This document shows, one piece after another, positions 12,619-28,675 of a stretch of 32,000 nucleotides of DNA. The notes under the pieces are model-generated. The model did not search any database. It was given only the letters and a program-made list of their open reading frames with translations, and had not been told where the DNA came from. Every line of letters starts with the position of its first letter. The first letter of the stretch is position 1. Both the position numbers and the translations under genes were made by a program. The stretch spans positions 2,670,001 to 2,702,000 of the forward strand of contig FP565575.1 in the NCBI GenBank assembly GCA_000091165.1, written 5' to 3'. The stretch is from Candidatus Methylomirabilis oxygeniifera. Its GTDB lineage: Bacteria; Methylomirabilota; Methylomirabilia; Methylomirabilales; Methylomirabilaceae.

Positions 12619-12659
12619 GTGACGGATGTGCGCCCGGCCTTCCCGAACCGCGTTTCACC

Positions 12660-12689: not shown

Positions 12690-12740
12690 CGCCACGGATT
12701 AAAGAGACATATCGGCGTCATCATAACGTTAGAGGCAGCG

Positions 12741-13880
12741 ATGAAAAAGCGACATTTACTAGCGCCAGGCCCGACTCCGGTCCTTCCGGAGGCCTTGCTG
12801 GCGATGGCCAGGCCGATTCTGTACCATCGCGGTCCTGAGTACGAAGTGCTCCTTGCCTCCGTCCGGGAAGGGCTCAAATTTCTCTTCCAAACCAAAAACG
12901 AGGTGCTGTTGTTCACCTCATCCGGTACCGGTGGGATGGAGGGGACTGTGGTGAACACGCTCTCACCCGGCGATCATGCCGTGGTCATCAGGAGCGGTAA
13001 GTTCGGCGAACGCTGGGGAGAGATCTGCGAGGCCTATGGCCTTCAGCCTCAGTACATCGATGTCGAGTGGGGGCGAGCGGTAGAGCCCGACCTCGTGGCG
13101 GCGGCGCTTGCGGCTGATCCCTCGATCAAGGCGGTCTTTGCCACGCACACAGAGAGCTCCACCGGCGTCATACACGATATTGAGGCGATCGCCCGGATCG
13201 TGGGGAGGACGCCGGCCATCCTGGTCGTTGACGCCATTATGAGTCTGGGGGTGGCAAGTTTGCCGATGGATACCTGGGGGGTGGACGTCGTTGTGGGCGG
13301 ATCTCAGAAGGGCTTGATGATCCCGCCGGGTCTCGCCTTCTGCGCGGTCTCCGACAAGGCCTGGGCGATGGTGCGACAATCCCGCCTTCCGAAGTTCTAC
13401 TTCAACTTCCTGGCAGAGCGGAAGAGCCTGGAGAAGAACCAGAATACCTTCACGCCGGCGGTGTCGTTGGTCATGGCGCTTCACGAGTCCCTCGCCGCGA
13501 TCAGGGCGGAGGGTCTCACTGCGCTGTTCGCGCGGCATGATCGGCTTGCGCGGGCGACCCGTGCCGGCGTGCGCGCGCTCGGACTCGAACTATTCACCGA
13601 CCGGCCTACCCCGGCGCTGACCGCCGTTGTCGCCCCGTCGGGTCTCGAGGCCGGCGCCATCGTAAAGAGGCTTCGAGCGGCTCACGGTATCACCATCTCG
13701 GGCGGACAGGCGCAGCTTAAAGGGAAAATCTTCCGTTTGGCTCACCTGGGATACGCCGACGAATCCGATGTTGTGATCTGCCTCGCGGCACTGGAACGAA
13801 CCCTTACCGATCTCGGCTACCCGGTCAAGCTGGGCGAGGGGGTACGGGCGGCCCAAGAGGTGCTGAGTCAGGCGGGCTGA
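12741..13880 (+). CDS. Class-V (AGT/serine-glyoxylate-type) pyridoxal-phosphate aminotransferase
   Basis: ORF 12660..13880. ATG 12741 gives MKKRHLLAPGPTPV, the typical family N-terminus. PLP-lysine motif VVGGSQKGLMIPPG. Confidence 0.9.
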   Translation: MKKRHLLAPGPTPVLPEALLAMARPILYHRGPEYEVLLASVREGLKFLFQTKNEVLLFTSSGTGGMEGTVVNTLSPGDHAVVIRSGKFGERWGEICEAYGLQPQYIDVEWGRAVEPDLVAAALAADPSIKAVFATHTESSTGVIHDIEAIARIVGRTPAILVVDAIMSLGVASLPMDTWGVDVVVGGSQKGLMIPPGLAFCAVSDKAWAMVRQSRLPKFYFNFLAERKSLEKNQNTFTPAVSLVMALHESLAAIRAEGLTALFARHDRLARATRAGVRALGLELFTDRPTPALTAVVAPSGLEAGAIVKRLRAAHGITISGGQAQLKGKIFRLAHLGYADESDVVICLAALERTLTDLGYPVKLGEGVRAAQEVLSQAG

Positions 13881-13888
13881 GGAAGAGC

Positions 13889-13923
13889 AGCTCTCAGCTA
13901 ACAGCCGACAGCTAATAGCTGAC
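13889..13923. repeat. Five tandem heptamers CAGCTCT CAGCTAA CAGCCGA CAGCTAA TAGCTGA, flanked by AAGAGCA/TGCTCTT inverted repeat
   Basis: Read directly in the aminotransferase-serA spacer. Flanking inverted 7-mers at 13884-13890 and 13927-13933. Confidence 0.6.
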
Positions 13924-13946
13924 TGTTGCTCTTGATAGGGGAACGA

Positions 13947-15527
13947 ATGCGAATCCTTGTAAGCGACGGCTTGTCGCCGCGCGGCATCGAGGTGTTGCGC
14001 CAGGCCGAGGGGTTTGAGGTCGATGAGCGGCGCAAGTTGACACCGGAGGCGCTGCAGGAGTGCATCGACAACTACGACGGCCTGATTGTCCGTAGCGCCA
14101 CCAAGGTCACCGCGCCGATCCTGCGAGCTGCGCACCACCTTAAGGTGGTAGGGCGGGCGGGCGTCGGGGTGGACAATATCGACGTCGAGGCGGCGACCGC
14201 TCGCGGTGTCCTGGTGATGAATGCCCCAAGCGGCAATACTCTGGCCACCGCCGAACATACCTTCTCACTCCTGCTGTCGCTTGCCAAGAATATCCCGCAG
14301 GCGACCGCCTCGATGAAAGGCGGTCGGTGGGAGAAGGGCGCATTTCTCAGTGTCGAGTTGGGGGGGAAGACGTTGGGGATCATCGGCTTGGGGCGGATCG
14401 GCGGCGAGGTGGCTCGACGCGCCAAAGGGTTTGCCATGCGCGTCATCGTCGCTGATCCCTTTGTGTCCGAAGAGACCGCGACCGCGCTGGGGGTCGAACT
14501 GGTGGAACTCCCGGACCTGTTCCAACGGTCGGATTTTATCACCGTTCACACCCCTATCACCCCGGAGACGTACCATCTCATCGATCGCGACGCGATCGCG
14601 CGGATGAAAACAGGGGTTCGGATCATCAATTGCGCGAGGGGCGGGATCGTCGACGAGACGGCGCTGTATGAGGCGATGAAGGCCGGCAAGGTTGCGGGCG
14701 CGGCGATGGATGTGTTTGAACAGGAGCCGACGACCGACTCGTCGCTGTTTTCGCTCAACAACTTCATCTGCACCCCGCATATCGGCGCAGCGAGCGAGGA
14801 AGCGCAGGAGAATGTCGCCGTCGAGATCGCCCAGCAAATCGTCGAGTATCTCCAGAAAGGGCTGATCAGGAACGCCGTGAATGCCCCGTCGATCGATCCG
14901 GCGCTGTACAAGATGCTTCAGCCGTACCTCACCCTGTCCGAGAAACTGGGCCGCCTGGCCTCTCAGCTTGCCGAGGGGGGGCTGCGCCAGATTCGGATCG
15001 ATTACCGGGGTGAGATTGCGGGCTATGACCCGGCGGCGCTCACCGCATCCGTCATCAAGGGGGCGCTGGACCCCTTCCTGGGCGATGAGGTCAACTACGT
15101 CAACGCCCTGGCTCTGGCGAAAGGACGCGGCATCCGGATCATCGAGAGTAAGGTGCTGGAGGAAGCCGACTACGCGAGCCTCATCACCGTCTCGATTAAA
15201 GGCGACCGTGGCACGAGTGAGGTGGCAGGGACGCTCTTCAGCCGCCGCGAGCCTAGGGTCGTCCGGATCAACGAATTCCGTCTGGAAGCCATTCCGGAGG
15301 GTTATCTCCTGATCTTTTCCAATTTGGACGTACCTGGAGTTATCGGGACGATCGGCACCTTGCTCGGAAAGCACCGGGTCAACATCGCCGGAATGCAGTT
15401 GGGGCGGGAGCAACCCGGCGGTCGGGCCGTATCGGTGGTGAATGTCGACAATCCTGTTCCTGCTCATGTCATCGATGAGATCCGGCGGCTTCCCAATATC
15501 GTCTTCGTCAAGCTGGTGAAGGCCTAA
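13947..15527 (+). CDS. serA: D-3-phosphoglycerate dehydrogenase (long form with ACT domain)
   Basis: MRILVSDGLS start (ATG 13947, AGGGGA upstream). NAD fold GIIGLGRIGGEVARRA. C-terminal ACT-like LLIFSNLDVPGVIGTIGTLLGKHRVNIAGMQLGR. Confidence 0.95.
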   Translation: MRILVSDGLSPRGIEVLRQAEGFEVDERRKLTPEALQECIDNYDGLIVRSATKVTAPILRAAHHLKVVGRAGVGVDNIDVEAATARGVLVMNAPSGNTLATAEHTFSLLLSLAKNIPQATASMKGGRWEKGAFLSVELGGKTLGIIGLGRIGGEVARRAKGFAMRVIVADPFVSEETATALGVELVELPDLFQRSDFITVHTPITPETYHLIDRDAIARMKTGVRIINCARGGIVDETALYEAMKAGKVAGAAMDVFEQEPTTDSSLFSLNNFICTPHIGAASEEAQENVAVEIAQQIVEYLQKGLIRNAVNAPSIDPALYKMLQPYLTLSEKLGRLASQLAEGGLRQIRIDYRGEIAGYDPAALTASVIKGALDPFLGDEVNYVNALALAKGRGIRIIESKVLEEADYASLITVSIKGDRGTSEVAGTLFSRREPRVVRINEFRLEAIPEGYLLIFSNLDVPGVIGTIGTLLGKHRVNIAGMQLGREQPGGRAVSVVNVDNPVPAHVIDEIRRLPNIVFVKLVKA

Positions 15528-15530
15528 AAG

Positions 15531-15572
15531 CAGCGGTCAGTGATCACGAAACGCTGAACGCTGATAGCCGAT
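15531..15572. repeat. 7-nt-periodic CAGC/GCTG repeat in serA-hisZ spacer
   Basis: CAGCGGT CAGTGAT CACGAAA CGCTGAA CGCTGAT AGCCGAT. Shares the exact 16-mer GCTGAACGCTGATAGC with 18263-18278. Confidence 0.55.
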
Positions 15573-15577
15573 CTTCA

Positions 15578-16891
15578 ATGAGCGACTTCGAATATTCCCC
15601 CAAGACCGCCATCCCGAAAGGGGTTCGGGTCTTTCCGCCGGAGGAGACCGCACTGCGCCGCTGGGCGGAGCGCCGGATCCTGACGGTTTTCGAGAGATGG
15701 GGGTTCCAGGAGGTCATCACCCCGACGTTCGAATATCTGGAGGTCTTCTCGGGAGAGCCGGAGCGGGAGGGCGGAGACAAGATCTTCAAGTTCGTCGATC
15801 GGCCGACCGGCCGTCTGCTCGCGCTGCGGTACGACCCGACCCCTCAGGTGGCGCGCCTCGCCGCGACCACCCTTCGGCACCGGTCCTTGCCGTTGCGTCT
15901 TTCGTACGCGACAAATATCTTTCGCGATGAGGCCCCTCAGACCGGTCGGCAACGCGAGTATGTCCAGCTTGGCGTGGAACTGATCGGGCTGGAGCGGCCG
16001 GAGGCCGATGCCGAGATGGTGGCGATGGCGATAGAAGGCTGCCGAGCCCTCGGCCTGCAGCGCTTTCAAATCGATGTGGGGCAGATCGAGTATGTGCGGG
16101 GGCTCGTCGATGCCCTGGGGCCTCCACCTGATCGACGCCGGGCGTTGGTTTCGGCCATCGATAGGAAGGATACTGTCGAGATTGAACTGCTCGTCCGAGG
16201 TCTGGACGCGGACGACAAGTCCAAGCAGGCGGTGTTGGAACTGCCGATGCTCTATGGAGGGAAGGAGGTCCTGGCTCGTGGGCGGGATCTGGCGCCTAAC
16301 CGCCGGTCGCAAGAGGCCCTGCGAAACCTCGCCCAGGTCTATGAGGTGCTGGAGCAGTACGGTCTGGCGGATCAGGTCATCATTGATCTCGGTGAAGCGA
16401 GAGCCTTCGAGTACCACACCGGCGTCACCTTTTCGGCATTCGCGCAGGGCCTGGGTTCCGAGATTTCGCGCGGCGGCCGATACGACGACCTGATCGGTGG
16501 GTTCGGGTATCCGTGTCCCGCCACCGGCTTCGCCTTCGATCTGGACAAGGTCATGGAGGCGGTCGCGACCGAGAACCGGCCTCCGCCGGCGACCGGTCAG
16601 AGGTTCCTGATTATCGACTTCAACCCCGATAAGCGGAACGCCCTTCGCGTCGCGCGGCTTCTGCGGGAACAGGGTTACACGGCAGCGAGAGACATCATTA
16701 CGCGGGGCCTGGAGGGCTCATTTGACTATGCCAAAAGATCCGGGATCGGCCGAGCGATCGTGCTGGGCCTTCCTCATCTGCCTCAAGATGAATTGCTTAT
16801 CAGGGATCTTGCCTCTGGGACTGAGGAGCGGGTCCCGGTCGAGCGGTTTTGCGGCGAGGTCGAACGTGGAGAGCGGCGATGGCTAATGTAA
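15578..16891 (+). CDS. hisZ: ATP phosphoribosyltransferase regulatory subunit HisZ (HisRS paralogue)
   Basis: HisRS-like core (FEYHTGVTFSAF...RGGRYDDLIGGFG...ATGFAFDLDKV), with DLD where HisS has G-x-ER. Located directly upstream of purA. Confidence 0.8.
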   Translation: MSDFEYSPKTAIPKGVRVFPPEETALRRWAERRILTVFERWGFQEVITPTFEYLEVFSGEPEREGGDKIFKFVDRPTGRLLALRYDPTPQVARLAATTLRHRSLPLRLSYATNIFRDEAPQTGRQREYVQLGVELIGLERPEADAEMVAMAIEGCRALGLQRFQIDVGQIEYVRGLVDALGPPPDRRRALVSAIDRKDTVEIELLVRGLDADDKSKQAVLELPMLYGGKEVLARGRDLAPNRRSQEALRNLAQVYEVLEQYGLADQVIIDLGEARAFEYHTGVTFSAFAQGLGSEISRGGRYDDLIGGFGYPCPATGFAFDLDKVMEAVATENRPPPATGQRFLIIDFNPDKRNALRVARLLREQGYTAARDIITRGLEGSFDYAKRSGIGRAIVLGLPHLPQDELLIRDLASGTEERVPVERFCGEVERGERRWLM

Positions 16892-18189
16892 TCGTTGTCG
16901 GCACGCAGTGGGGCGATGAAGGGAAGGGGAAGATCGTCGATCTTCTCTCCGAGTATTTCGATGCGGTGGCCCGGTACCAGGGTGGGTCCAACGCCGGCCA
17001 TACGGTCGTTGTAGAAGAGGAGAAGATTGTCCTGCATCTGGTCCCGTCAGGCGTGCTGAGGAAGGGGAAGGTCTGCATTCTGGGGAACGGTGTGGTGATT
17101 GATCTGATCGCCCTCATCCAGGAAATGGATCAGCTCGGAAGGCTGCACGTCAAGATCGAGGAGAACTTTTTTATCAGCAAAAACGCGCATCTGGTGCTCC
17201 CCTATCATATGATCCTCGACGCGGAGCTGGAGCGGCTCCGAGAGGGTCGGCAGATCGGGACGACCCGACGCGGAATCGGGCCGGCCTATGTCGATAAGAT
17301 GGCGAGGGCAGGGATCCGGGTGGGCGACCTGGCCGACCGCGACCGCTTCAAGGAGCAGCTCCGCAGCAACCTTGAAGCGAAGCGAGCCCAGTTTCCCCAC
17401 CATCAGGAGTTGCAAGAGCTGGATCTCGAAAAGATGGCGGTGGAGCAGCTTGAACTGTTCGAGCGCATTCGCGGCTTCGTGGTAGACAGCTCCCTCGTGA
17501 TTCACGACCTGATTAAAACCGGGAAGCGCGTCCTGTTTGAGGGGGCACAGGGGACCCTCCTGGACGTTGATCTTGGGACCTATCCTTATGTCACCTCATC
17601 GAGCGCCACGGCCGGAGGCGCCTGCACCGGGACCGGGGTCAGTCCGCTGACGATCGACGGTGTCCTCGGCGTCACCAAGGCCTATGCGACGCGAGTCGGC
17701 GAGGGTCCGATGCCGACGGAGCTGACGGATAGCATCGGTCAGATACTGCAGACGCGCGGGCAGGAGTTCGGGGCCACAACGGGACGACCGAGGCGCTGCG
17801 GCTGGTTCGATGCCGTGGCCGTCAGGTACAGCGCCAGAATCAACGGCCTCTCGGCTCTCGCGTTGATGAAGCTGGACGTCCTGGATGCCTGTGACCCGAT
17901 CCGGATCTGTACGGGCTACCGACACAACGATAGGATTCTCCGAGAGTTTCCGAACGAAATCGGTCTGCTGCAGGCGTGTGAGCCGATCTATGAAGAGGTG
18001 CCGGGCTGGAACCAGAGTATTGCGGGTATCACCTCATACAAACATCTGCCGGCCAACTGCCGGGCCTATATCGAACGGATTGAGGGACTGACGGGGGTCA
18101 AGGCCGGGCTCATTTCGACAGGGCCCCGGCGGGACCAGACGATCCTTCGCTCGACACCGGCCTTGCGGCAGTGGGGGCTGACACGCTAA
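16879..18189 (+). CDS. purA: Adenylosuccinate synthase
   Basis: [21 protein letters not shown] N-terminus (ATG 16879, 13-nt overlap with hisZ). [11 protein letters not shown] and TGRPRRCGW motifs. Confidence 0.95.
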   Translation: [436 protein letters not shown]

Positions 18190-18204
18190 GCTGCCGTAGA
18201 ACGA

Positions 18205-18280
18205 GCATTCAGCGCTCAGCCATCAGCTTCAGACAATACCGTAATTACCGGAAAAGCTGACTGCTGAACGCTGATAGCTG
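18205..18280. repeat. Large imperfect hairpin built from 7-nt-periodic TCAGC/GCTGA units, downstream of purA
   Basis: Left arm GCATTCAGCGCTCAGCCATCAGCTT pairs with the reverse complement of the right arm AAGCTGACTGCTGAACGCTGATAGC at about 20 of 25 positions. About 24-nt loop. Confidence 0.55.
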
Positions 18281-18290
18281 CCCTTTTCAC

Positions 18291-18366
18291 GACCCGTTAG
18301 CTCAGTTGGCAGAGCTCCTGCCTTTTAAGCAGGGAGTCTCGGGTTCGAGTCCCGAACGGGTCACCA
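18291..18366 (+). tRNA. tRNA-Lys (anticodon UUU)
   Basis: Hand-folded cloverleaf: acceptor GACCCGT/ACGGGTC, D arm GCTC-AGTTGGC-AGAGC, anticodon stem CCTGC/GCAGG with loop CTTTTAA, T arm TCGGG-TTCGAGT-CCCGA, encoded CCA. Confidence 0.95.
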
Positions 18367-18400
18367 CTCCACCCTCGCTCTCCTTCATGGAAAAGAATTC

Positions 18401-19411
18401 ATGCGCATCGGTCCCCACCAGCTCCAAAATAACCTGATTGTCGCCCCCATGGCTGGCGTGACGGATCGGCCTTTCCGCATGTTGTGCAGGAGCATGGGCG
18501 CAGGCATGGCGGTTAGCGAAATGGTGGCCTCCAACTCGCTGCTGTATGGTTCGGAAAAAACCAAACGGCGCGCCAATCACGAGGGCGAAACCGATCCGAT
18601 CTCGGTGCAGCTCCTCGGCGCCGACCCGAAAATGCTGGCACAGGCCGCCCGTTACAACGTGGATGCGGGGGCGCAAATCATAGACATCAATATGGGCTGC
18701 CCGGCGAAAAAAATCTGCAATGTGATGGCCGGTTCCGCGCTGTTGCAGAATGAGGCGCTGGTGGCGCAAATACTTGAAACGGTAGTGGCGGCGGTGAGCG
18801 TACCGGTCACCTTGAAAATCCGCACCGGATGGGATACACAAAACCGCAATGCGGTGCGCATCGCGCAGATCGCCGAAATCAGCGGTATCCAGGCGCTTGC
18901 CATTCATGGCCGCACGCGCGCCTGTGCCTACACCGGCGAGGCGGAATATGACACCATCGCGGCAGTGAAAGCCAGCGTGAAGATTCCCATCATCGCCAAC
19001 GGTGACATCACTACCCCGGAAAAAGCCCACTATGTTGTGCAGCACACCGGTGCAGATGCCGTGATGATAGGCCGCGCCGCGCAGGGCCGTCCGTGGCTGT
19101 TCCGCGAAATCGCACATTTTCTTGATACCGGTCTACACCTGCCCGCGCCACAAGTGGTTGAAATCCAGCGCGTGCTGCTCAATCATCTGCACGGCCTGTA
19201 CGATTTGTACGGCGAACATACCGGCTTGCGTGTGGCGCGTAAACACATCTCCTGGTACACCAAAGGGCTGGCCGGTTCGGCGCAGTTCCGTCGCTGCATG
19301 AATCAACTGGAAAGCATTGCGGAACAATTGAAGGTAGTAAATGATTTTTTTGATGGTCAGTTGCAGCGCGGGGAACGCCTGCACTATGCCGAGGAACAGA
19401 TTGGACAATAG
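18401..19411 (+). CDS. dusB: tRNA-dihydrouridine synthase B
   Basis: APMAGVTDRPFR, DINMGCPAKK, IANGDI motifs and the C-terminal helical domain (ARKHISWYTKGL). Confidence 0.9.
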   Translation: MRIGPHQLQNNLIVAPMAGVTDRPFRMLCRSMGAGMAVSEMVASNSLLYGSEKTKRRANHEGETDPISVQLLGADPKMLAQAARYNVDAGAQIIDINMGCPAKKICNVMAGSALLQNEALVAQILETVVAAVSVPVTLKIRTGWDTQNRNAVRIAQIAEISGIQALAIHGRTRACAYTGEAEYDTIAAVKASVKIPIIANGDITTPEKAHYVVQHTGADAVMIGRAAQGRPWLFREIAHFLDTGLHLPAPQVVEIQRVLLNHLHGLYDLYGEHTGLRVARKHISWYTKGLAGSAQFRRCMNQLESIAEQLKVVNDFFDGQLQRGERLHYAEEQIGQ

Positions 19412-19412
19412 G

Positions 19413-19500
19413 GACAGTGACTATTTGTGTAGATTTGCCTGCATTGGCTGATAACCAAGGCATCAACTCAGTACGGATTTGCCGCGCCGATTATGCTCGC
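19413..19500 (+). repeat. R repeat, copy 1 (homologous to 22607-22690)
   Basis: GACAGTGACTATTTGTGTAGATTTGCCTGCATTGGCTGATAACCAAGGCATCAACT aligns with GACCGTGACCATTTATATAGATTTGCCTGCATCGGCTGAGAACTAAGGCATCAACT at about 85% by eye. Weaker similarity continues for about 30 nt. Confidence 0.7.
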
Positions 19501-19664
19501 CGTTATACCGGATTTCAAGGACAGACGCAAACGGTAACGCTTCTTAGGCTACACCCGCTTGGGCCTTCCCGGTCCCGGCAGTAGCCGGCCTACATTCAGG
19601 ATTCGGCTGCGCCGGTAGAGACCCCACGGATACATGAGGTTTGTGCCCTCCTTTGGGGACCCCA

Positions 19665-19791
19665 TGAAGTTCTTCTGCAGTACAAGCATACAACGCTCAT
19701 CATGCTGCCACCTTCCCCGAGAAGAGAATCGTCAGATCGAGGTGTCGGAGCGCGACATATATATTTAGATCGAATCCCGGACGGGTCACCA
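19665..19791 (+). repeat. C repeat, copy 1, ending in a tRNA-Lys 3'-end-like core
   Basis: GCAGTACAAGCATACAACGCTCATCATGCTGCCACCTTCCCCGAGAAGAGAATCGTCAGATCGAGGTGTCGGAGCGCGACATAT..TCGAATCCCGGACGGGTCACCA aligns with 24616-24722 at roughly 80% with small indels. Confidence 0.7.
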
Positions 19792-20303
19792 ATTTTTCCA
19801 ATTTCCTGCTCACCCCCGCCATTGCCTTTCTATGGCTCGCGGCCCATCTATTCACGGTAGCCGTAGCGTAGGGTAGATCGTGCAGGTTAGTGGTTGAAAT
19901 CGACACTGCCGGACTCACCATCGGGACCCTCAAGGCGCTCAGTTTATCCGGTCCAGTCCGCTCATTCTTTTCCATTGACACCCTTGCAAGCTGAATGCTA
20001 CAAGCCGGATACTCGGTTCTATGCTTCATTACTTCCCGCAGATAAACAGGATGTCGGCATGGCTCGCGGCGGGAATCCGGTCCTAGAAGGTCCTGTGACA
20101 ACCTGATGGAGGGGACGTCAGAGCGATGCGCAAGAGCCAGCTTTGTGAGCCTGTCGAAGAGACATCACCGCTAGGTAAGTTCTGCGAAAGACGTGGATGC
20201 TTTAGTGTTCGTGAGTTGGACCATTAACAAGGAGCGTCACGCATGGATGACTGGCTCTTAACCGCGCAGGAGGTAGCCCCAAGATGAAGACGGAGGCGAC
20301 AGT

Positions 20304-22559
20304 ATGTATCTATTGAGCAGCATACAAAAGACCTGGGCGGGTTTGCGTTGGTTTGTCGGCGGTGTGGCAGTTATGACCATACTGGCGGCGTCTGGGGTCG
20401 CCGCTGGCCAGGATATGGGTGGCGCAGCCTACCCTGGGGCACACGTCGAAGGCGAGTTTGCACCTGCCCTTCCCAGCGTGCGCGCTCTGCCGCAACGGCG
20501 GCTGCCACAATCCCGACAGCCAGCGCAGGTGGCTCTCGACCGTGTCGAGGCGGCGCACTTGAAGATGGAGGCGACAGACCAGCCATCTAAACCTGGGGTG
20601 CCGCTACAGATCGGCGTCAGCCGCGATGTACCGATGCTGCGTAATGCCGCTCGAACCTCGGTGCTCATGTCTTGGACGTCCATTCCCGGCGGGCAGATTG
20701 CCGCGATCAGCATTACTTCTCCTGACGCCCTCGGCTTGCGTCTGGGCTTGTTGGTTGAAAAGCTGCCTCGTACGGCTCTGCTGCGGTTTTATGCCCAGGG
20801 GGCGGAGCAGGTGTTCGAGGTGTCGGGCGGGGAGATTATGGACACCATCGCCCGCAATCTCGCCGCCGGCGACGCAAGCGATGACGCCCGGACTTACTGG
20901 TCGCCCGTCATCGACGGCCAGGAAATGACGGTGGAAATCGAGCTGCCTGCCGGGGTGTCTCCGGATGAGGTGATGTTTTCCATACCGCGTATTTCCCATT
21001 TGTTTTCATCGCCTCTGGATCCCCGCGCCTTGCCAAGACAAATTGGCAGTGCGGAGTGGTGCAATCTCGATTCCATGTGCTATACATCGACATGGGGAAA
21101 CGAATCCCTGGCGACCGCCAAAATGACATTCACGGAAGACGGTTCGAGTTATCTCTGTACGGGCAGCTTAATGAATGATAGCGATCCCTCCACGTTCATT
21201 CCCTATTTCCTGACTGCCAACCATTGTATTTCGACGCAAACTGTGGCCTCAACCCTGCAAACCTATTGGTTTTATCGTGCCTCAAGTTGCAACAGCGGTA
21301 CGTTGAGTCCCAGCACCCAGACATTGACCAGCGGGGCCACACTGCTCTATGCCGGTTCGAATACCGATACGAGCTTCTTGCGACTGAACAGCTCAGCCCC
21401 TCCTGGGGCTGGGTATTCAGGGTGGTCGGCGGGTCTGCCGGTGCTCTCCACCCCGATCATTGGCATCCATCATCCGAATGGCGATTTGCAAAAGATCAGC
21501 GCTGGAAACATCACAGATTACTCCAGTTGCTCCAATGGCAATTCTTTCACTTGCAGTTCGGCGTCCTCTGGCAGCGCCGACCATCTCAAGGTTGTCTGGG
21601 GCCTTGGCATTACCGAGGGCGGCAGCAGCGGTTCCGGTCTTTGGATTGTATACGGCAGCAGCCACTACTTGGTGGGCCAGTTACATGGTGGAAACTCTTC
21701 CTGCGTCACGCCCACTGCTCCAGATTACTACGGTCGTTTCGATGTAGCTTACAACGCGGCGTTGTTTCAATGGCTGGGAACCACCCCGGCGAACTACACG
21801 TTGTCGGTGACGGGCGCCGGCACGGGCCAGGGCACGGTGACGGGGCCTGGAATTAACTGCACGATCAGCGCTGGGAGCACGAGCGGGACGTGCAGTGCGA
21901 ACTACGCGTCTGGAACGGGGGTCTCGCTGACCGCAACGTCCATCGGAGTCTCGACATTCAGTGGCTGGAGTGGGAACTGCGCCGCCGATGGGACCGTCAC
22001 GCTGGAGGCGAACAAGATCTGTACGGCCACCTTCACTAGACCGCTCATACTCTCGACCACCTCCCTGTCCGCAGAGGAGCAGGGAGTCGCCTATTGGTAC
22101 GCGCTGCAGGCCGAAGGCGGAATGCCCCCTTACACCTGGAGCCGTATCAAGGATAAGCTCCCCAAAGGCCTGACCCTGGATGCCGCAGGCACCCTCAGCG
22201 GGATCCCGACCAAGGCCAAGACCGCGACCTTTACCGTCCAGGTGACGGATGCCGCATGGGCCTCAGCGACGCAGAACCTCTCTCTGCAGATCGTCAAACG
22301 TGTCGATCTCAAGACCAAAAAACTGAGTCGGGGTACGGTCGGGATGCCGTACGCAGCCATGCTCAAAACCAATGGCGGGATTCCGCCGCTGACCTTCAGC
22401 CTGGTCGGCGGGGCGCTCCCGCCAGGCCTTACCTTCGACCCGGGTACGGGGCAGATCTCTGGGACCCCTACGCTAGCCGGAACCTTCGACTTCCAGACGA
22501 TGGTAACCTCGAGCGGCGGCTCCAGCGATCAGGGGAACATTCGGATCAAGATCAAGTAG
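20304..22559 (+). CDS. Secreted S1-family (lysyl-endopeptidase-like) serine peptidase with C-terminal InlB-B-repeat-like and two Ig-like (He_PIG-type) domains
   Basis: GGAGG lies 7 nt upstream of the ATG; hydrophobic signal region. Triad contexts LTANHC (His), DTSFLRL (Asp), GGSSGSGLW (Ser). Repeats LPKGLTLDAAGTLSGIPT and LPPGLTFDPGTGQISGTPT. Confidence 0.85.
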   Translation: MYLLSSIQKTWAGLRWFVGGVAVMTILAASGVAAGQDMGGAAYPGAHVEGEFAPALPSVRALPQRRLPQSRQPAQVALDRVEAAHLKMEATDQPSKPGVPLQIGVSRDVPMLRNAARTSVLMSWTSIPGGQIAAISITSPDALGLRLGLLVEKLPRTALLRFYAQGAEQVFEVSGGEIMDTIARNLAAGDASDDARTYWSPVIDGQEMTVEIELPAGVSPDEVMFSIPRISHLFSSPLDPRALPRQIGSAEWCNLDSMCYTSTWGNESLATAKMTFTEDGSSYLCTGSLMNDSDPSTFIPYFLTANHCISTQTVASTLQTYWFYRASSCNSGTLSPSTQTLTSGATLLYAGSNTDTSFLRLNSSAPPGAGYSGWSAGLPVLSTPIIGIHHPNGDLQKISAGNITDYSSCSNGNSFTCSSASSGSADHLKVVWGLGITEGGSSGSGLWIVYGSSHYLVGQLHGGNSSCVTPTAPDYYGRFDVAYNAALFQWLGTTPANYTLSVTGAGTGQGTVTGPGINCTISAGSTSGTCSANYASGTGVSLTATSIGVSTFSGWSGNCAADGTVTLEANKICTATFTRPLILSTTSLSAEEQGVAYWYALQAEGGMPPYTWSRIKDKLPKGLTLDAAGTLSGIPTKAKTATFTVQVTDAAWASATQNLSLQIVKRVDLKTKKLSRGTVGMPYAAMLKTNGGIPPLTFSLVGGALPPGLTFDPGTGQISGTPTLAGTFDFQTMVTSSGGSSDQGNIRIKIK

Positions 22560-22606
22560 GATGAGCAAGCGACCGGGCTCGGGTCTCAGCAAGCATTTAA
22601 AATAGC

Positions 22607-22690
22607 GACCGTGACCATTTATATAGATTTGCCTGCATCGGCTGAGAACTAAGGCATCAACTGGGGGTGTAGATTATGCCCCCGATCGCC
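22607..22690 (+). repeat. R repeat, copy 2
   Basis: See copy 1. Contains TAGATTTGCC (22624-22633) and a second degenerate copy TAGATTATGCC (22670-22680), mirroring 19430-19439 and 19475-19483 in copy 1. Confidence 0.7.
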
Positions 22691-22847
22691 GAGCAGTGGT
22701 TGAAATCTCCACACTGCAATGTCAAAAGGGCACTCCCCGCTGTCACTTGGTCCGTCCTTTCCCACGATGACGAACTACTTGGTCGTCGGATACCAGAATA
22801 TCGGGAAACCGAGAAACGGATCACAGAAACTGAGGCGGCAGGGGAGT

Positions 22848-22877
22848 CCAAAGCCCAGTCAATTGACTGGGCTTTGG
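22848..22877. promoter_or_regulatory. Perfect 30-bp palindrome CCAAAGCCCAGTCAA|TTGACTGGGCTTTGG
   Basis: Verified base by base. No flanking U-tract on either strand, so an operator or RNA hairpin is more likely than a canonical terminator. Confidence 0.5.
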
Positions 22878-23013
22878 TTCGGGCGATTCGCTGTCAGAAA
22901 ACTGGATGGGCGGATACAGGTACAACGTTTTCCGTCGTCCGCCTTCATACAAATATTTTATTGCGTACTGGAAAGGGTTATAGAGTGTTAGGCTAACTTC
23001 AAGAAAGGAAGAG

Positions 23014-23829
23014 ATGGACTTCATTGATGTGAGCTGGGCAAATTTCATTGCCGCGATCAAGCCAGACCTGCTCCATGATCGCCGGTTTATCTACAGGGGC
23101 CAGGAGTCCAGCAACTGGCGTCTCCAGACAAGTCTCCATAGAACCGGACAATGGCGTACGCCAGAGGACATTTCCTCCTATATTCAACATATTGTCCCGC
23201 TCGCGCATGAAGCCGTAGCGTCATGGGAGGGGGTCCGTCGAGATCTGTCCAACGGTTTTCAGCTGGCAGAATTCCTGGCCTATCTGCAACACAATAGTTT
23301 CCCTACGCCTCTCCTGGATTGGACCTATTCCCCTTACATTGCTGCATTTTTTGCTTTTGAGTGTATCAATCACTATCAACCCGAGCACGACTACGTATGC
23401 ATCTACCGGTTTGATAAGGGAGGCTGGATTCGCTCTTACAAGCAGAGCTATGACTACAGTGACAAGAACCTACACGTATCGATTATTGAGCCATCCTCAG
23501 TGGGGAACCCGAAGCTCATGCTTCAGCAGGGACTCTTCATGTATACGAATCAGGACGATATCGAAAGCCACATCGAATTGAACAGCAAGAACCCCAAGGA
23601 GCCCTATCTCAGGAAGTTCCGGATTCATTGTCGAGAGCGGCAGGTTGCGTTGCGGGAGCTACGGCTCATGAATATCACGCGCATGCAGCTCTTTCCATCG
23701 GTCGAAAGCGTCTGTCGCAAGGTCGCAACCGATGTCTCTCTAATGTTCCCAATGGGCAAGACACGGTCCGAGATTAGCAAGGAAATCTTTGAACAATTCC
23801 TTGCGAGCTATAAGACCGGCGAAAAATGA
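23014..23829 (+). CDS. FRG-domain protein
   Basis: FIYRGQESSNWRLQTSLHR (F/Y-R-G motif) and LQHNSFPTPLLDWTYSPYIAAFFAF match the FRG domain as I recall it. AAGGAAG RBS. Visibly lower G+C than the flanks. Confidence 0.85.
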   Translation: MDFIDVSWANFIAAIKPDLLHDRRFIYRGQESSNWRLQTSLHRTGQWRTPEDISSYIQHIVPLAHEAVASWEGVRRDLSNGFQLAEFLAYLQHNSFPTPLLDWTYSPYIAAFFAFECINHYQPEHDYVCIYRFDKGGWIRSYKQSYDYSDKNLHVSIIEPSSVGNPKLMLQQGLFMYTNQDDIESHIELNSKNPKEPYLRKFRIHCRERQVALRELRLMNITRMQLFPSVESVCRKVATDVSLMFPMGKTRSEISKEIFEQFLASYKTGEK

Positions 23830-23948
23830 CCGCACAGCAAGATATCGTAGCCGATCTGTCACGCTTGCACTTGAGCCCTTTGAGCGGGCAGAAGCTCAGG
23901 CGAATTGAAACAGGCGAATACGGGCTAGCAAGCGCGCCAGGCGGCTAA
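23826..23948 (+). CDS. Possible 40-aa ORF translationally coupled to the FRG gene (ATGA overlap)
   Basis: Hand-translated MTAQQDIVADLSRLHLSPLSGQKLRRIETGEYGLASAPGG. Its ATG overlaps the FRG TGA stop. No recognisable family; could be a gene remnant. Confidence 0.2.
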   Translation: MTAQQDIVADLSRLHLSPLSGQKLRRIETGEYGLASAPGG

Positions 23949-24058
23949 ACACAACATTGCAGAAGGCGATCAGTGAGGCCGCCTGCAAGCCGCGGCAAAT
24001 CAGCCCATTGTGGGGGATAAGCCGCCGACGCGGCTGGCGTGGGTGGGTCAGAATCATC

Positions 24059-24087
24059 TTGACCGGTTGGGCTCACGATAGGATAGT
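24059..24087 (+). promoter_or_regulatory. Sigma70-like promoter for the TA pair (TTGACC-17-GATAGT)
   Basis: TTGACC 24059-24064, GATAGT 24082-24087, about 70 nt upstream of ATG 24158. Confidence 0.4.
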
Positions 24088-24157
24088 ATGAATAAATTCG
24101 CTATTGGAACGTGGAGTTGTCCTGAGAGACACGCTGCCGGTTTCGGAGGTTTCAGCT

Positions 24158-24358
24158 ATGAGCAAAGTGGAGTCGATCGAAGAACAGATCAAGACGCTGT
24201 CAGCGGAAGAGGTCGCGAAGCTTCGGGAGTGGTTTCTTGGATTCGACTGGACGCTGTGGGATCAGCAGCTCGAGCGCGACGTTGCAGCCGGGAAACTCGA
24301 TGTCTTGGCGGACAAGGCGCTTCGGGATCACGCGGCCGGAAAGACGACCCCTCTTTGA
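24158..24358 (+). CDS. Type II antitoxin (partner of RelE/ParE toxin)
   Basis: ATG 24158 preceded by GGAGG at 7-nt spacing. MSKVESIEEQIKTLSAEEVAKLREWF...DVAAGKLDVLADKAL resembles antitoxins of this pairing. Its stop overlaps the toxin start. Confidence 0.7.
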   Translation: MSKVESIEEQIKTLSAEEVAKLREWFLGFDWTLWDQQLERDVAAGKLDVLADKALRDHAAGKTTPL

Positions 24359-24609
24359 ATCATCATGCGTCCCCGGACTTCTGGGCCTGCTACCGGTCTT
24401 TACCGGAGGATATCCGGAAGCTCGCGGATCACGCCTACGAACACCTTAAACACGATCCGCAGTATCCATCGCTGCATTTCAAGAAAGTCGGGCGTTTCTG
24501 GTCTGCGCGCGTGGGAGGCGGCTATCGCGCGGTGGCAGTGGAAGGTGCTGACAGTTTCATCTGGTTCTGGATCGGCACCCATACGGACTACGAGAAGTTG
24601 CTTAGCTAA
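24355..24609 (+). CDS. RelE/ParE-family type II toxin
   Basis: TTG start at 24355 overlaps the antitoxin TGA. YRSLPEDIRKLADHAYEHLKHDPQYPSLHFKKVGRFWSARVGGGYRAV...WFWIGTHTDYEKLL fits the family. Confidence 0.75.
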   Translation: MNHHASPDFWACYRSLPEDIRKLADHAYEHLKHDPQYPSLHFKKVGRFWSARVGGGYRAVAVEGADSFIWFWIGTHTDYEKLLS

Positions 24610-24615
24610 CCCATT

Positions 24616-24722
24616 GCAGCACAAGCCTCCACCGCTCATCATGCGCCACCTTCCCGGAGAAAGGGATCGTCAGATCGAGGTGCGGAGCGCTACATATTTG
24701 CATCGAATCCCCGACGGGTCAC
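24616..24722 (+). repeat. C repeat, copy 2, ending in a tRNA-Lys 3'-end-like core
   Basis: See copy 1. Core TCGAATCCCCGACGGGTCAC at 24703-24722. Weaker similarity extends left into the last codons of the toxin gene (GAGAAGTTGCTT vs GAAGTTCTTC). Confidence 0.7.
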
Positions 24723-24735
24723 TATTCTCGGAGGA

Positions 24736-25248
24736 CTATTCCGTTGCCCCGGCTTCCTTGAGGAGTCGTACGACCTCGTCCTCGCTCCTATTAAACGCTA
24801 TCTTCATGGCCGTGACGCCATTGTTGGTTTTGGCGTGCACATCCGCACCCGCTGCGAGCAGCGCTTTCACGACCTCGCACTGGCCTTCCTGAGACGCCCA
24901 CAGCAAGGCCGTTGCGCCATTGTCCTGTCTGGCGTTCACATCCACGCCCTGGGCGAGCAGCGCCTGTACGACCTCGAGATGGCCGGCTAGGGACGCTCTC
25001 ATCAAGGCCGTCCAGCCTGCATCGGATTTGACGTGTACCCACGCGCCCGCCGCAATCAGCGCCTGTACGACCTCGAGATGGCCTCTGAGGGACGCTCTCA
25101 TCAAGGCCGTCCAGCCATATTCATCTCTGGCGTTCACATTCGCGCCCGCCGCAATCAGCGCGTGCACGGCCTTGGGAGAGCCGTCCTGAGCCGCTCTCAT
25201 CAAGGCTGTCATACCGTGTTTACCTGCGGCGTTCACATCGTCGCTCAT
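24736..25248 (-). CDS. Ankyrin-repeat protein (about 5 repeats)
   Basis: Repeats G-TALM-A---GH-EVV-ALIAAGA-VN. ATG 25248 preceded by AAGGAGGAG at 5-nt spacing, 20 nt after the queC stop. Confidence 0.85.
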   Translation of the reverse strand: MSDDVNAAGKHGMTALMRAAQDGSPKAVHALIAAGANVNARDEYGWTALMRASLRGHLEVVQALIAAGAWVHVKSDAGWTALMRASLAGHLEVVQALLAQGVDVNARQDNGATALLWASQEGQCEVVKALLAAGADVHAKTNNGVTAMKIAFNRSEDEVVRLLKEAGATE

Positions 25249-25268
25249 GTTCGCTCCTCCTTCATCGA

Positions 25269-26012
25269 TCACAGGTGTGCCGGCTTATCTTCGTCCTTCG
25301 CCTCTCCAAGGCCGGGGTCCGCGATGCCGGCTTCGGCGAAGCCTTTCTCCCTCAGTATACAACTGTCGCAGGCGCGGCAGGGCCGTCCATCCTGGGTCGG
25401 GTCGTAACAGCTCCAGGTCAGCCGGAAATCGATCCCGAGGGCAGCGCCCCGGCGTATGATCTCGGCCTTGGACAGGTGGATCAGCGGAGTGTAAATGGTG
25501 AGCGTGGATCGGCCTTCAGCGCCGGCGCGGGTTGCCAGATTCGCCATACGCTCGAAGGCCGCGATATATTCAGGACGACAATCCGGATACCCGCTGTAGT
25601 CGATTGCGTTGACCCCGAGCACAATATCTTCCGAGCCGATCACCTCGGCCCAGGCCAGCGCATAGGAGAGAAAGATGGTATTGCGGGCGGGAACGTATGT
25701 TACGGGGATACCGGAGCCGATCTCGTCCATCTCACGACCCTTCGGCACCGGGATCTCAGCGGTCAGCGCCGACCCTCCGATCCGGCGAAGATCAAGGTCG
25801 AGGATCAGGTGCTGCGATGCGCCGAGGGCCGCCGCGATCCGCGTCGCGCTTTCCACCTCGCGCGCGTGACGCTGGCCGTAGCGAAAGGTCAGGGCATGAA
25901 GCTGATACCCCTTGGCCTTTGCCAGCGCGGCTGCCGTTGCGGAGTCGATCCCGCCGCTCAGCAGGACCACTGCAGGCTTGCCTGCCTGTGCGCTGCGCGC
26001 AGACAGGTTCAC
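25269..26012 (-). CDS. queC: 7-cyano-7-deazaguanine synthase
   Basis: PP-loop [13 protein letters not shown] and C-terminal Zn cysteines [20 protein letters not shown] at 26012 overlaps the queE TAG by 1 nt. The track's longer ORF overlaps queE. Confidence 0.9.
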
Positions 26013-26659
26013 TACACCCCCCGCCGGTTCGGATCCCACAGATACTTGTGAAGCTGAATCTGAAGCCTGACATTCAGTCGGTCCGTCAAGATCCATTCAG
26101 CCAGCTCCCTCGGATGGAGTTCGCCGAGAACCGGCGAGAAGAGGACGTGGGCCTTTTCAGCCAGGGCGTGCTCCGCCATCACTCGTCTGGCCCATTCGTA
26201 GTCGCGGCGATCCGCCACGACAAATTTGATCTGATCCTTCCTGTCGAGATGCCGGAGGTTCTCGAGATTGTTGTGAGGGTCCATCCCACTCCCAGGAGCC
26301 TTGAGGTCCAGGATCTTGACCACCCTCCGGTCGAGGCGATCGATGCTGAGGCTCCCCCCTGTTTCGATCAGGACTTCGTACCCCTCGAGGAGCAAGCGAT
26401 CAATCAGAGGATGCACCGCTTCCTGCAACAGCGGCTCCCCTCCGGTAATCTCGACCAGCGGGCACTTATAGCCTCGCACTTGTTCCAGTACCTGCTCGAT
26501 CGAGCGTTGCTCGCCCTCGTGGAACGCATAGGTCGTATCGCACCACCGGCACCGAAGATTACACCCGGTCAGGCGAACAAAGACGCACGGCCGACCGGCA
26601 TAGGTCGATTCTCCCTGGATACTGTAGAAGATTTCGTTTACGCGGAGGCTCATCATCAC
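26012..26659 (-). CDS. queE: 7-carboxy-7-deazaguanine synthase (radical SAM)
   Basis: [12 protein letters not shown]...[10 protein letters not shown] (Cx3Cx2C cluster). Start is GTG 26659 or ATG 26656/26653. Confidence 0.9.
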
Positions 26660-26675
26660 CTTGACTTCAGGATGT

Positions 26676-26721
26676 CATAAAAATAGAAGGGCAGGCTCTC
26701 CTCCCTGCGAAAGCCTGCCCT
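26676..26721 (-). terminator. Intrinsic terminator after htrA
   Basis: Perfect 10-bp stem AGGGCAGGCT (26688-26697) / AGCCTGCCCT (26712-26721), followed on the minus strand by TCTATTTTTAT. Confidence 0.55.
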
Positions 26722-26771
26722 GAGCGACGTCGAAGGGCCTGCCTACCAGATAGCACAGAAGCCCGGTACGC

Positions 26772-28256
26772 CTACCCTTCCGACCCGATTACCACATACC
26801 GCGTTCCACCGTCCCGCTTGACCAGAAGAAGTGTCGGTTCATCCGGCTTGGTTTTCTCCAGGACACGCCTGACCTGGTTTACTGTTGTCACCCTGACACG
26901 GTTAATCTCCAGGATCAGATCCCCGGGTTGCAACCCGACCGAGTCGCCCGGACTATCCGGTTCAACCTCTGTGATCACGACCCCTTTTTCACCCTTTAAT
27001 CCAAACTTACGTGCGAGTGCCGGCGTGAGCTCCTGAATATCGATCCCCAGCTTCGTTTTCGGAGAAGTCGCCGCCATGGCCGCCACTTGCTCTTCTTTAA
27101 GCTCCCCAACCTTGACCTGCAGCGTGACGTCGGCTCCGTCGCGGACAACCTTCATGGGGACCTCTTTTCCTACCGGCGTACTGGCCACCATATGAGGCAG
27201 ATCAGTGGAGGACTTGATCGTTTTACCGTCAAACTCGACGATGACGTCCCCCTGTTTGACTCCAGCCTGTTCGGCCGGCGATCCCTCCATCACATCCGAC
27301 ACCAGGGCGCCATTGGCCTGCTTGAGGGAGAATTTCTTACCGAGGTCCGGGGTAATCGGCTGGATCGCTACTCCAAGCCATCCGCGGGTCACCTGCCCAC
27401 GCTCCTTCAACTGGGGTAGGACCTCCTTCGCCATCTCGATGGGAATCGCAAAGCCGATCCCGATCGAGCCGCCCGTTGGGCTGAAGATCGCGGTGTTGAT
27501 TCCCACCGCCTCGCCGTTCGTGTTGATCAGCGGTCCGCCGCTATTGCCTCGATTAATCGAGGCATCGGTCTGGATGAAGTTGTCATATGGGCCTTCGCCG
27601 ATGAACCGGCCCTTGGCGCTGACGATGCCGGTGGTGACGGTCTGGTTCAGGCCGAATGGATTGCCGATTGCCATGACCGGCTCGCCGACTTCCAGCCTAT
27701 CCGAGTTGCCAAACGGGATCACCGGTAAGCCGGAGGCCTCGATTTTGATGATGGCGATATCAGTCTTCGGATCCCTCCCGATCACCTTCGCCTTGAACTC
27801 TCGACTATCACCCAGCTTGACGGTGATGTCCGTCGCATTTTCGACCACGTGGTTATTCGTCAGGATGTAGCCGTCTTTGTTGACAATGAAGCCGGATCCC
27901 AGACTGGTCGCCTTAAACTGCCTCGGCTGATCGCCGAAGAACCGTTTGAAGAACTCGTTGAAAGGGTCATCTTCGCTGTAAGGGCCACGGGACTGGACGC
28001 CCCTTTTGACTACCTGGGTAGTGCTGATATTCACCACAGCGGGGGTCAACTCCTTTGCCAGTTTGACCCAGAGCTTTCCGTCTGAGATCTGGCTCGAACT
28101 GAACAGCCCGCTCTCTCCTTTTTCGGTCCACACTTGAGCAGTCGTGGCCTTTGTGAGCGGGACCAGATTCAAGGAGGCCGTAATCAGCACTCCAAGAATC
28201 AAACAGGACGCTGCAACGACGATTAAGGTCCTGGTGTGAAACCGTCCATTATGCAT
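26772..28256 (-). CDS. htrA: DegP/HtrA-family periplasmic serine protease with two PDZ domains
   Basis: Triad contexts TNNHVV, DIAIIK, GNSGGPL. N-terminal TM/signal segment. Two PDZ-like segments (GSPAEQAGVKQGDVIV and DSPGDSVGLQPGDLIL). Confidence 0.9.
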   Translation of the reverse strand: MHNGRFHTRTLIVVAASCLILGVLITASLNLVPLTKATTAQVWTEKGESGLFSSSQISDGKLWVKLAKELTPAVVNISTTQVVKRGVQSRGPYSEDDPFNEFFKRFFGDQPRQFKATSLGSGFIVNKDGYILTNNHVVENATDITVKLGDSREFKAKVIGRDPKTDIAIIKIEASGLPVIPFGNSDRLEVGEPVMAIGNPFGLNQTVTTGIVSAKGRFIGEGPYDNFIQTDASINRGNSGGPLINTNGEAVGINTAIFSPTGGSIGIGFAIPIEMAKEVLPQLKERGQVTRGWLGVAIQPITPDLGKKFSLKQANGALVSDVMEGSPAEQAGVKQGDVIVEFDGKTIKSSTDLPHMVASTPVGKEVPMKVVRDGADVTLQVKVGELKEEQVAAMAATSPKTKLGIDIQELTPALARKFGLKGEKGVVITEVEPDSPGDSVGLQPGDLILEINRVRVTTVNQVRRVLEKTKPDEPTLLLVKRDGGTRYVVIGSEG

Positions 28257-28675
28257 CGTATCCCCCTGCGATGGTGTGGCCTGACTCCGTTTCCGGTCGG
28301 CAAACCCAGATATGCACCTTTATTACGACACGGTAAATGCGGGAGCGTTTAGGAGAACCTTCCCGGGGTTGACCACAACGCCCCCGCCTTTATTGCTCCT
28401 AGCTTAGCAGACTCATTGCTCAAATTCAACAGACCCCTCTGTACCGAAAGTGGAGTGATCATACATGGGTAACGCTCACTGGTACGGCAAAGATATGATC
28501 GACCGGAAACCATGGACGGCAAATCATGTATCACGGGACGACCGGGTAGTATATTAATAGTAGGGTCTTCGATGGCGAAGACCCGATCAACACCAAAGGG
28601 AGCATGCCCCCGCGTGCTGCAGGTACCGATGACGGTAAGGCGGCAATGGGTACAACGTAGACGGGAGGGTAAAAA

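Follow-up and report, generated by a model that had tools for sequence, protein, structure and literature searches.

Probable remnants of successive integrations at the 3' end of tRNA-Lys in Candidatus Methylomirabilis oxygeniifera

Islands formed by tyrosine integrases at tRNA genes reportedly arise by crossover between the T-loop and the 3' end of the gene. In the classical arrangement an intact tRNA gene stands at one end of the island and a partial 3' copy at the other, with identity running from the T-loop to the discriminator or CCA, and the locus described here shows the same layout. It lies in Candidatus Methylomirabilis oxygeniifera, within a 32,000-nt stretch of contig FP565575.1 (GCA_000091165.1) that we call the window; all coordinates are those of the window unless a locus label (L and a number) is given, and all features are on the forward (+) strand unless stated otherwise. 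Unlike the classical islands, the window contains no integrase; such a gene abuts the same tRNA in the relatives L096 and L114. We consider it very likely, with a probability of roughly 85%, that at least two site-specific integrations, one after the other, occurred at the 3' end of the tRNA-Lys(UUU) gene, and that the segment downstream of it is what decay has left of them.

Two described systems resemble the locus in further respects. In the ssrA islands of Dehalococcoides (McMurdie et al. 2011, PMC3146451), a single small-RNA gene is followed by several islands in a stack, bounded by direct repeats of the 3' end of that gene (~20 nt), the insertion point was inferred to lie in the T-loop, and a short conserved motif that does not belong to the target is found directly upstream of each repeat, comparable to the repeat B described below. 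Integration genes are missing from some of those islands, for which mobilization in cis was suggested, and the region is hypervariable between strains. The two systems differ in their target (transfer-messenger RNA, tmRNA, in Dehalococcoides and tRNA-Lys here), in the length of the conserved arm (15 nt there, ~95 nt here) and in cargo (reductive dehalogenase genes there; dusB, a peptidase gene and defence/toxin-antitoxin genes here). In addition, many of the Dehalococcoides islands have retained, beside attL, a module with a serine recombinase (PMC3146451), and no integration module is left in the window.

Decay to integrase-less remnants flanked by attachment (att) sites is also known from cis-mobilizable elements (CIMEs) and from tandem accretion of ICEs (integrative and conjugative elements) and IMEs (integrative and mobilizable elements), with ICESt1/CIME in Streptococcus thermophilus and IME_Sag2603_tRNAlys as examples (Guedon et al. 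2017, PMC5704250). In contrast to those cases, the att copies in the window have diverged (2 and 4 mismatches, and CCA to CTA in the third copy), the array has no conjugation or mobilisation genes, and the host belongs to the phylum NC10. A literature search found no description of islands in Methylomirabilis or NC10. The array described below is a remnant array and a new example of an ordinary, well-known phenomenon.

The tRNA-Lys(UUU) gene is intact (18291..18366; called by ARAGORN and, as RF00005 with 69.6 bits, by Rfam) and would be the integration target, on the attL side. It is the sole tRNA gene that ARAGORN and Rfam call in the window, and it is 100% identical to the tRNA-Lys of L113, L088, L008 and L108. 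Its final 22 nt (18345-18366, TCGAGTCCCGAACGGGTCACCA) are the repeated core. An earlier note, made from the letters of this DNA alone, had reported that this core recurs twice in direct orientation, and both copies were found in place: core copy 2 (19770..19791, TCGAATCCCGGACGGGTCACCA) has 2 mismatches to the tRNA (20/22), runs from T-loop to CCA and carries the T-stem half CCCGG, and core copy 3 (24703..24724, TCGAATCCCCGACGGGTCACTA) has 4 mismatches (18/22), carries the T-stem half CCCCG and has its CCA mutated to CTA. The first 20 nt of core copy 3 are identical to the tRNA-Lys 3' end of L094/L095. In shuffle controls, two matches to the 22-mer at ≤3 mismatches were seen in 0/100 dinucleotide shuffles, and any match at ≤4 mismatches in 0/200 shuffles. 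The region 18000-25500 is colinear and 100% identical in four independent assemblies, and three shorter contigs are identical to their ends; thus, the structure is not a misassembly, and the worry that the repeats might mark a chimeric join could be laid aside.

The repeat turned out to be longer than the 22 nt noticed before, as both extra copies are the 3' tips of a ~114-nt repeat, here called B (19676-19789 versus 24615-24722; 114 nt, 84% identical). Within B, identity to the tRNA starts only in the T-loop (TCGA...); the ~95 nt upstream of that point are unrelated to the tRNA but conserved in the extra copies. This upstream part is represented by arm B1 (19676..19769), directly 5' of core copy 2, and by arm B2 (24615..24702), which starts 6 nt past a toxin stop codon and is 83.7% identical to the B arm that closes the peptidase islet of L115. 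Most simply, B would be an attP arm, with B1 on the element side of attR, in parallel with the motif ahead of the ssrA repeats in Dehalococcoides. Four genomes provided five copies of B that could be aligned; B copies are ~80-84% alike irrespective of how closely the hosts are related, which argues for recombination among related elements and not for mere decay in place.

To place these repeats in an evolutionary context, the purA/tRNA-Lys site was compared across thirteen further distinct lineages besides the window. An empty site, which the earlier note had proposed to look for in related genomes, is present in L113 (GCA_023249055.1; PurA 89%), where purA and an identical tRNA-Lys are followed by 20 nt and then by queC-queE-htrA. 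Homology between L113 and the window covers 15001-18366 and 25307-28438, with breakpoints at 18366/18367 and 25306/25307. This layout implies that the window holds a 6,940-bp insert (18367-25306) starting at the first base after the CCA of the tRNA. With respect to the 6.4 kb noted before, dusB belongs to the insert, and the right end (~25306) lies inside the tail of queC.

An intermediate state was observed in L115, which is Ca. M. lanthanidiphila. Positions 11406-14189 of this locus align with 19770-22559 of the window at 87.7% identity, and the aligned stretch of L115 consists of the intact tRNA 3' end, the leader and the peptidase gene; the islet that contains dusB in the window (islet 1) is absent. 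It follows from this alignment that core copy 2 is a former tRNA 3' end, and that 18367-19769 (dusB and the repeat modules A1 and B1) was inserted later. In L115 the peptidase islet is closed by a B arm and core (14538-14651), and then come a second islet (DUF2950/DUF3300), a third core-like copy (17390-17411) and queC.

Other relatives have different DNA at the same position. In L088 and L089 an island with dusB, tex and APH is bounded by the tRNA and, just before queC, by a degenerate tRNA-Lys fragment that starts from the anticodon loop; homology to the window continues through dusB as far as 19408. L008 has an ISL3 fragment, dusB, module A, module C, a DUF433/PIN-like toxin-antitoxin pair, B with a core, and IS1595, and its identity to the window falls from 97% (dusB and A) to 80% (B) across the cargo. 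The L008 record (DATMXF010000265.1) is labelled 'Patescibacteria group bacterium' and matches the window at 92-97% identity across 4.5 kb with hisZ, purA, tRNA-Lys and dusB; given this near-identity, the label probably stems from a mis-binned contig. In L108, whose match to the window ends at 18366, an IS3 fragment is accompanied by two toxin-antitoxin pairs, module C, a ParE-like pair whose toxin is truncated, B and a degenerate core. L090 has an 8.7-kb insert (11353-20198) with IS21 and Mutator transposases between two complete tRNA-Lys genes, the second of which is preceded by a ~160-nt fragment of the purA 3' end; with this purA fragment and the whole second tRNA, the structure is unlike the 22-nt scars of the window.

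Recombinase genes are still found at this site in several lineages. In both L096 and L114 a tyrosine integrase gene follows tRNA-Lys immediately, and in L117 (12680-20288) and L118 (9636-12624) three adjacent large serine recombinases and an HTH_17 (excisionase-like) gene lie downstream of tRNA-Lys; these two loci belong to a further species of Methylomirabilis. Accordingly, at least two classes of recombinase use the site. An RHH-PIN pair follows tRNA-Lys in L120, and unrelated genes follow it in L094/L095. Altogether, homology to the window ends at 18366-18371, 0-5 nt from the end of the tRNA, in eleven distinct relatives with differing content beyond that point. Judging from these breakpoints, the 3' end of tRNA-Lys is a genus-wide integration hotspot.

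The core copies also differ from each other in an ordered way. The current tRNA has CCCGA as the 3' half of its T-stem; copy 2 has CCCGG, which the living tRNAs of L115, L090, L117 and L120 share, and copy 3 has CCCCG, as do those of the more distant L094, L096 and L114. In living relatives the matching 5' halves are TCGGG (for CCCGA), CCGGG (for CCCGG) and CGGGG (for CCCCG). Since the states match progressively remoter relatives, the order outward from the tRNA would be from young to old, in line with entry of every new element into the intact tRNA, and the displaced tRNA ends may be read as a fossil series of the stem. All five displaced copies have TCGAAT in the T-loop, and most resident tRNAs have TCGAGT. 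This base is either derived from the element, in which case the crossover lay to its right, or an old state of the tRNA, as L094 has TCGAAT. A bolder idea, which we regard as unlikely, is that with each integration the variant of the element replaced the T-stem's 3' half and that the host then compensated in the 5' half; the islets, framed by modules A, C and B, might also still be exchangeable or cis-mobilisable. If true, mobile elements would drive the compensatory evolution of an essential tRNA stem.

The history that we favour for the array is as follows. An incoming element would carry an attachment site with a copy of the tRNA from T-loop to CCA. Recombination inside the 22-nt identity block would restore a complete tRNA at the left junction, and the earlier tRNA 3' end would come to lie at the distal end of the element, behind its arm B. 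The peptidase islet (19792-24724) would have entered first and the dusB islet (18367-19791) next, into the rebuilt tRNA, resulting in the order tRNA, islet 1, copy 2, islet 2 and copy 3, with the ank piece (24725-25306) between copy 3 and queC. Because a shorter version of islet 2 (leader, peptidase, B and core) is common to L115, this islet appears to predate the split of M. oxyfera and M. lanthanidiphila. Afterwards, the integrase genes would have been lost. Deletions and recombination with related elements would have remodelled the islets, which would explain why modules A, C and B are shared while the toxin-antitoxin cargo that they surround differs. The ParE-like toxin-antitoxin pair would stabilise its islet. 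The repeats, the empty and intermediate states, the foreign origin of dusB and the integrases of relatives are shown; we infer the action of a tyrosine integrase in the insertions of the window, the role of B as an attP arm and the order of the secondary rearrangements.

Several lines of comparison agree with successive integrations targeted to the tRNA, as the earlier note had proposed: the empty site of L113, the intermediate of L115 and the integrases beside the same tRNA in L096 and L114. Its description of the island as old, decaying and devoid of an integrase also held, in that no recombinase or remnant was found, the ParE-like gene of L108 is truncated, and the toxin-antitoxin cargo of L008 is missing from islet 1. 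Among the features of genomic islands, an intact tRNA boundary, a direct 3' repeat, an empty site in a relative and foreign content are all present and an integrase is absent. With regard to CIMEs and tandem accretion, core copies bound both recombinase-free islets, and islet 2 exists in L115 without islet 1. Since the integrase is missing from the array, the islets would be remnants and not an intact or active island.

On the other hand, five observations weigh against integration by tRNA-specific recombination. First, no recombinase domain was detected in the genes called within ~10 kb on either side or in the scanned open reading frames (ORFs). Second, the integrase islands of L096 and L114 contain no B-like arm in the DNA covered, their far ends lying outside it. 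Third, the right edge of the insert lies ~580 nt past copy 3 and includes ank, and no core copy adjoins queC. Fourth, L113 shares the derived tRNA variant of the window, so its empty site could be a secondary loss and not the ancestral state. Fifth, module A is misplaced for an attL-side arm, as it follows dusB or the peptidase gene and not a core copy. An integrase pseudogene, in the 512-nt gap past copy 2 or at another place, was rejected as a candidate: with the integrase of L096 as query, tblastn returned only an antisense overlap with the tRNA.

Some of these points would suit a different origin, in which insertion sequence (IS)-mediated or illegitimate recombination, combined with local segmental duplication, built the region in the absence of any tRNA-specific integrase, and the 22-nt copies are by-products of duplicating B segments. 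Such a process would fit the missing integrase, the position of the right edge away from a core copy and the duplication of modules A, B and C within the array. It would also fit the IS fragments seen at the hotspot (ISL3 and IS1595 in L008, IS21 and Mutator in L090, IS3 in L108), as well as the duplicated purA 3' end and whole tRNA-Lys of L090. However, the breaks of eleven distinct relatives all fall 0-5 nt from the last base of the tRNA, and in L115 the positional ortholog of copy 2 is the 3' end of an intact tRNA, an outcome predicted by integration and not by duplication of B. The T-stem states of the cores differ and are phylogenetically ordered, which means that the cores are not recent copies of one another, and integrases abut the same tRNA in L096 and L114. 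In view of this evidence we consider the IS-based origin very improbable.

Equally improbable in our view, although compatible with an integrative origin, is the explanation that modules A, C and B are functional elements under selection and not passive scars; they could act as a promoter/leader plus an element for 3' processing or termination with a tRNA-like end, and would together frame an exchangeable toxin-antitoxin/defence cassette. The frame formed by C and B does hold unrelated pairs (ParE-like in the window and L108, DUF433/PIN-like in L008), the start of B lies 2-6 nt past the stop codon of the toxin gene in both the window and L008, and the fall of window-L008 identity from 97% to 80% across the cargo indicates module replacement. 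Nevertheless, no Rfam family, tRNA or tmRNA is called over A or B, and B, which lacks the 5' half of the T-arm and the acceptor stem, cannot fold as a tRNA-like domain. Metagenome contigs gave only one further true B, again at this tRNA-Lys locus, the five copies are too few for covariation, and islet 1 of the window keeps A and B with no cargo between them. Finally, chance resemblance or an assembly artefact, to which one might be led by the mere 22-nt length of the repeat and the 4 mismatches of copy 3, has a negligible probability, as shuffles never reproduced the matches, four assemblies are identical, and orthologous copies occur in L008, L108 and L115. Successive integration into the 3' end of tRNA-Lys is thus the reading that we retain.

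Additional candidates for the nature of the repeats were tried and rejected. That B is the 3' end of a gene, such as an integrase, was rejected, as the frames of its copies differ and single-base indels are present. Nor was a dispersed repeat retained for B: a scan of metagenome contigs yielded 14 pattern matches with one true B (L108), also at the tRNA-Lys locus, and neither A nor B was found in viral contigs by pattern scans or in plasmids by BLAST. An integron cassette array was dismissed on the grounds that no integrase is nearby and that B ends in a 3' fragment of tRNA-Lys and is confined to this locus, attC folding being outside this test. The 385-nt segment from A1 to B1, ending in ...GGGTCACCA, was considered as a tmRNA, a permuted tmRNA or another structured RNA and was also rejected. 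ARAGORN called no tmRNA in the window, Rfam gave nothing over A and B at the gathering threshold and only noise at E≤10, and no 5' half of a T-stem was found upstream of the tRNA 3' fragment in B.

Module A occurs twice in the window. A1 (19407..19468) is a non-coding stretch of 62 nt that begins at the dusB stop codon and is 98% identical to L008 5856-5917, and A2 (22601..22662; also 62 nt, 87% identical to A1) lies 41 nt past the stop codon of the peptidase gene. The possibility that A is a degraded core with a left-end arm was examined by local alignment of three A copies to 16 core-plus-flank sequences with shuffle controls, and it was not retained: the one weak alignment obtained (18 nt, z=3.6) was reached by 2/200 shuffles, which is not significant over 48 comparisons. 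Module C (23993..24140, ~150 nt) lies upstream of the toxin-antitoxin pair and may be a promoter or leader. It is 75% identical to L008 6212-6360, and this counterpart precedes a toxin-antitoxin pair of another kind, in which DUF433 is combined with a PIN-like toxin. Moreover, L108 1860-1357 is 89.7% identical to 23993-24497 of the window. Two smaller shared motifs were also noticed close to where the islet modules start, AGTGGTTGAAATC at 19889-19906 (~100 nt past copy 2) and at 22695-22712 (33 nt past A2), and GTGTAGATT at 19427 (inside A1) and 22667 (directly past A2); they may be due to chance or may be protein-binding sites.

Islet 1, the newest insertion (18367..19791; guanine-cytosine (GC) content 56.6%), consists of dusB, A1, a spacer, B1 and core copy 2. 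The dusB gene (18401..19411) encodes tRNA dihydrouridine synthase B (Pfam Dus, E=1.5e-107; NCBIfam DusB equivalog). A search with DusB returned almost solely genomes of Gallionellaceae, Nitrotoga and Nitrosomonadales, at 73-89% identity; identity to the dusB of Gallionellaceae/Nitrosomonadales is 83-89% at the amino acid level and up to 87% at the nucleotide level. The foreign stretch spans ~18375-19397 and is up to 87% nucleotide-identical to a betaproteobacterial metagenome-assembled genome. In comparison, the best homologs of PurA, whose gene lies 100 nt upstream of the tRNA, are from NC10/Methylomirabilaceae. Proteins of the window also cluster with proteins named Candidatus Methylomirabilis oxyfera, Ca. 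M. lanthanidiphila and Methylomirabilis sp., and a Gallionellaceae host, which the DusB search might suggest, was therefore rejected. A betaproteobacterial-type DusB in an NC10 host points to horizontal acquisition of the gene. By these sequence criteria, dusB is a xenolog and part of the insert, and the event looks like a transfer between phyla that brought a tRNA-modification gene to a hotspot at a tRNA gene, beside queuosine genes.

The surroundings of dusB were also examined. With E. coli Fis as the tblastn query, fis was found after dusB in 77 of the 87 loci examined, all of them among L009-L087, which is the layout of the canonical proteobacterial operon; the same query revealed no fis remnant in the window. 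Fragments of ISL3-family transposases abut the left edge of the foreign dusB (equivalent to 18375-18382 of the window) in L008 (4237-4823) and L009 (2263-2620). In L009, dusB-tex-APH adjoins an acyl-CoA synthetase gene and not purA and tRNA-Lys.

Regarding the significance of these findings, the 3' end of tRNA-Lys is here documented as an integration hotspot across Methylomirabilis, together with an empty site and an intermediate state. Members of this genus are nitrite-dependent methane oxidisers of NC10 that are not in pure culture and whose mobile DNA is little described. The hotspot carries candidate defence and toxin-antitoxin genes, and the locus could be used as a strain-level marker in enrichment cultures and metagenomes. 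The understanding of how such islands work is unchanged; the most noteworthy by-products are the T-stem series and the apparent movement of dusB across phyla, from iron-/nitrite-oxidising Betaproteobacteria into the Methylomirabilis lineage.

Islet 2, the older insertion (19792..24724; GC 56.2%), comprises a leader, the peptidase gene, A2, orf106, the FRG gene, module C, the toxin-antitoxin pair, B2 and core copy 3. The whole insert has a GC content of 56.7%, compared with 59-62% in its flanks, and the FRG gene has the lowest value of the region (50.4%); composition thus modestly backs a foreign origin. The accessory genes named in the earlier note, a secreted peptidase, an FRG protein and a RelE/ParE pair, were recovered by domain searches as a peptidase, an FRG protein and a ParE-like pair. 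The secreted-type peptidase (20304..22559; 751 amino acids) has Ig-like repeats (Pfam He_PIG, E=2.1e-23; PF27052 Lysyl_endopep_N in precomputed annotation) and is separated from core copy 2 by a leader of 512 nt. Its ortholog follows tRNA-Lys directly in L115. The FRG-domain protein (23014..23829; Pfam FRG, E=3.3e-22) matches PADLOC PDC-S15 (E=1.7e-49) and is a candidate single-gene anti-phage defence of this type. The ParE-like pair (24104..24609) is a type II toxin-antitoxin system. The antitoxin (24104-24358) has no Pfam match; it overlaps by 4 nt the gene of the ParE-like toxin (24355-24609; Pfam ParE_like PF24732, E=3.6e-6), and in the L108 ortholog of this pair the toxin is truncated.

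Between the peptidase and FRG genes lies orf106 (22676-22996), an unsupported ORF. A perfect palindrome of 15+15 nt (CCAAAGCCCAGTCAA/TTGACTGGGCTTTGG) is located within it at 22848-22877, and the contigs L005 and L006, from two independent samples, terminate exactly at 22877. This hints at population heterogeneity or an assembly break.

A third inserted segment (24725..25306, reverse strand) contains ank and a replaced C-terminal tail of queC, and its right side has no core copy. The ankyrin-repeat gene ank (24736-25272, reverse strand; Pfam Ank_2, E=7.9e-38) overlaps the queC stop codon, and beyond it lie queC, queE and htrA. The gene order ank-queC-queE-htrA was therefore correctly noticed before, but ank is not part of the conserved flank: it is inserted and is absent from L113, L088 and L115, in which homology resumes at 25307-25310. 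The last ~13 codons of queC (25269-25306) lie in the inserted DNA, and for this reason the tail differs from that of L113, L088 and L115.

Elsewhere in the window, between an RDD-family gene and a Zn_ribbon_8 gene (~9200-12250), a second variable region was observed in which toxin-antitoxin genes are abundant (HTH_3, ParE_toxin and small ORFs). The content of the equivalent position varies among relatives, with Fic in L088, DUF4258 in L090 and HicAB in L115 and L117.

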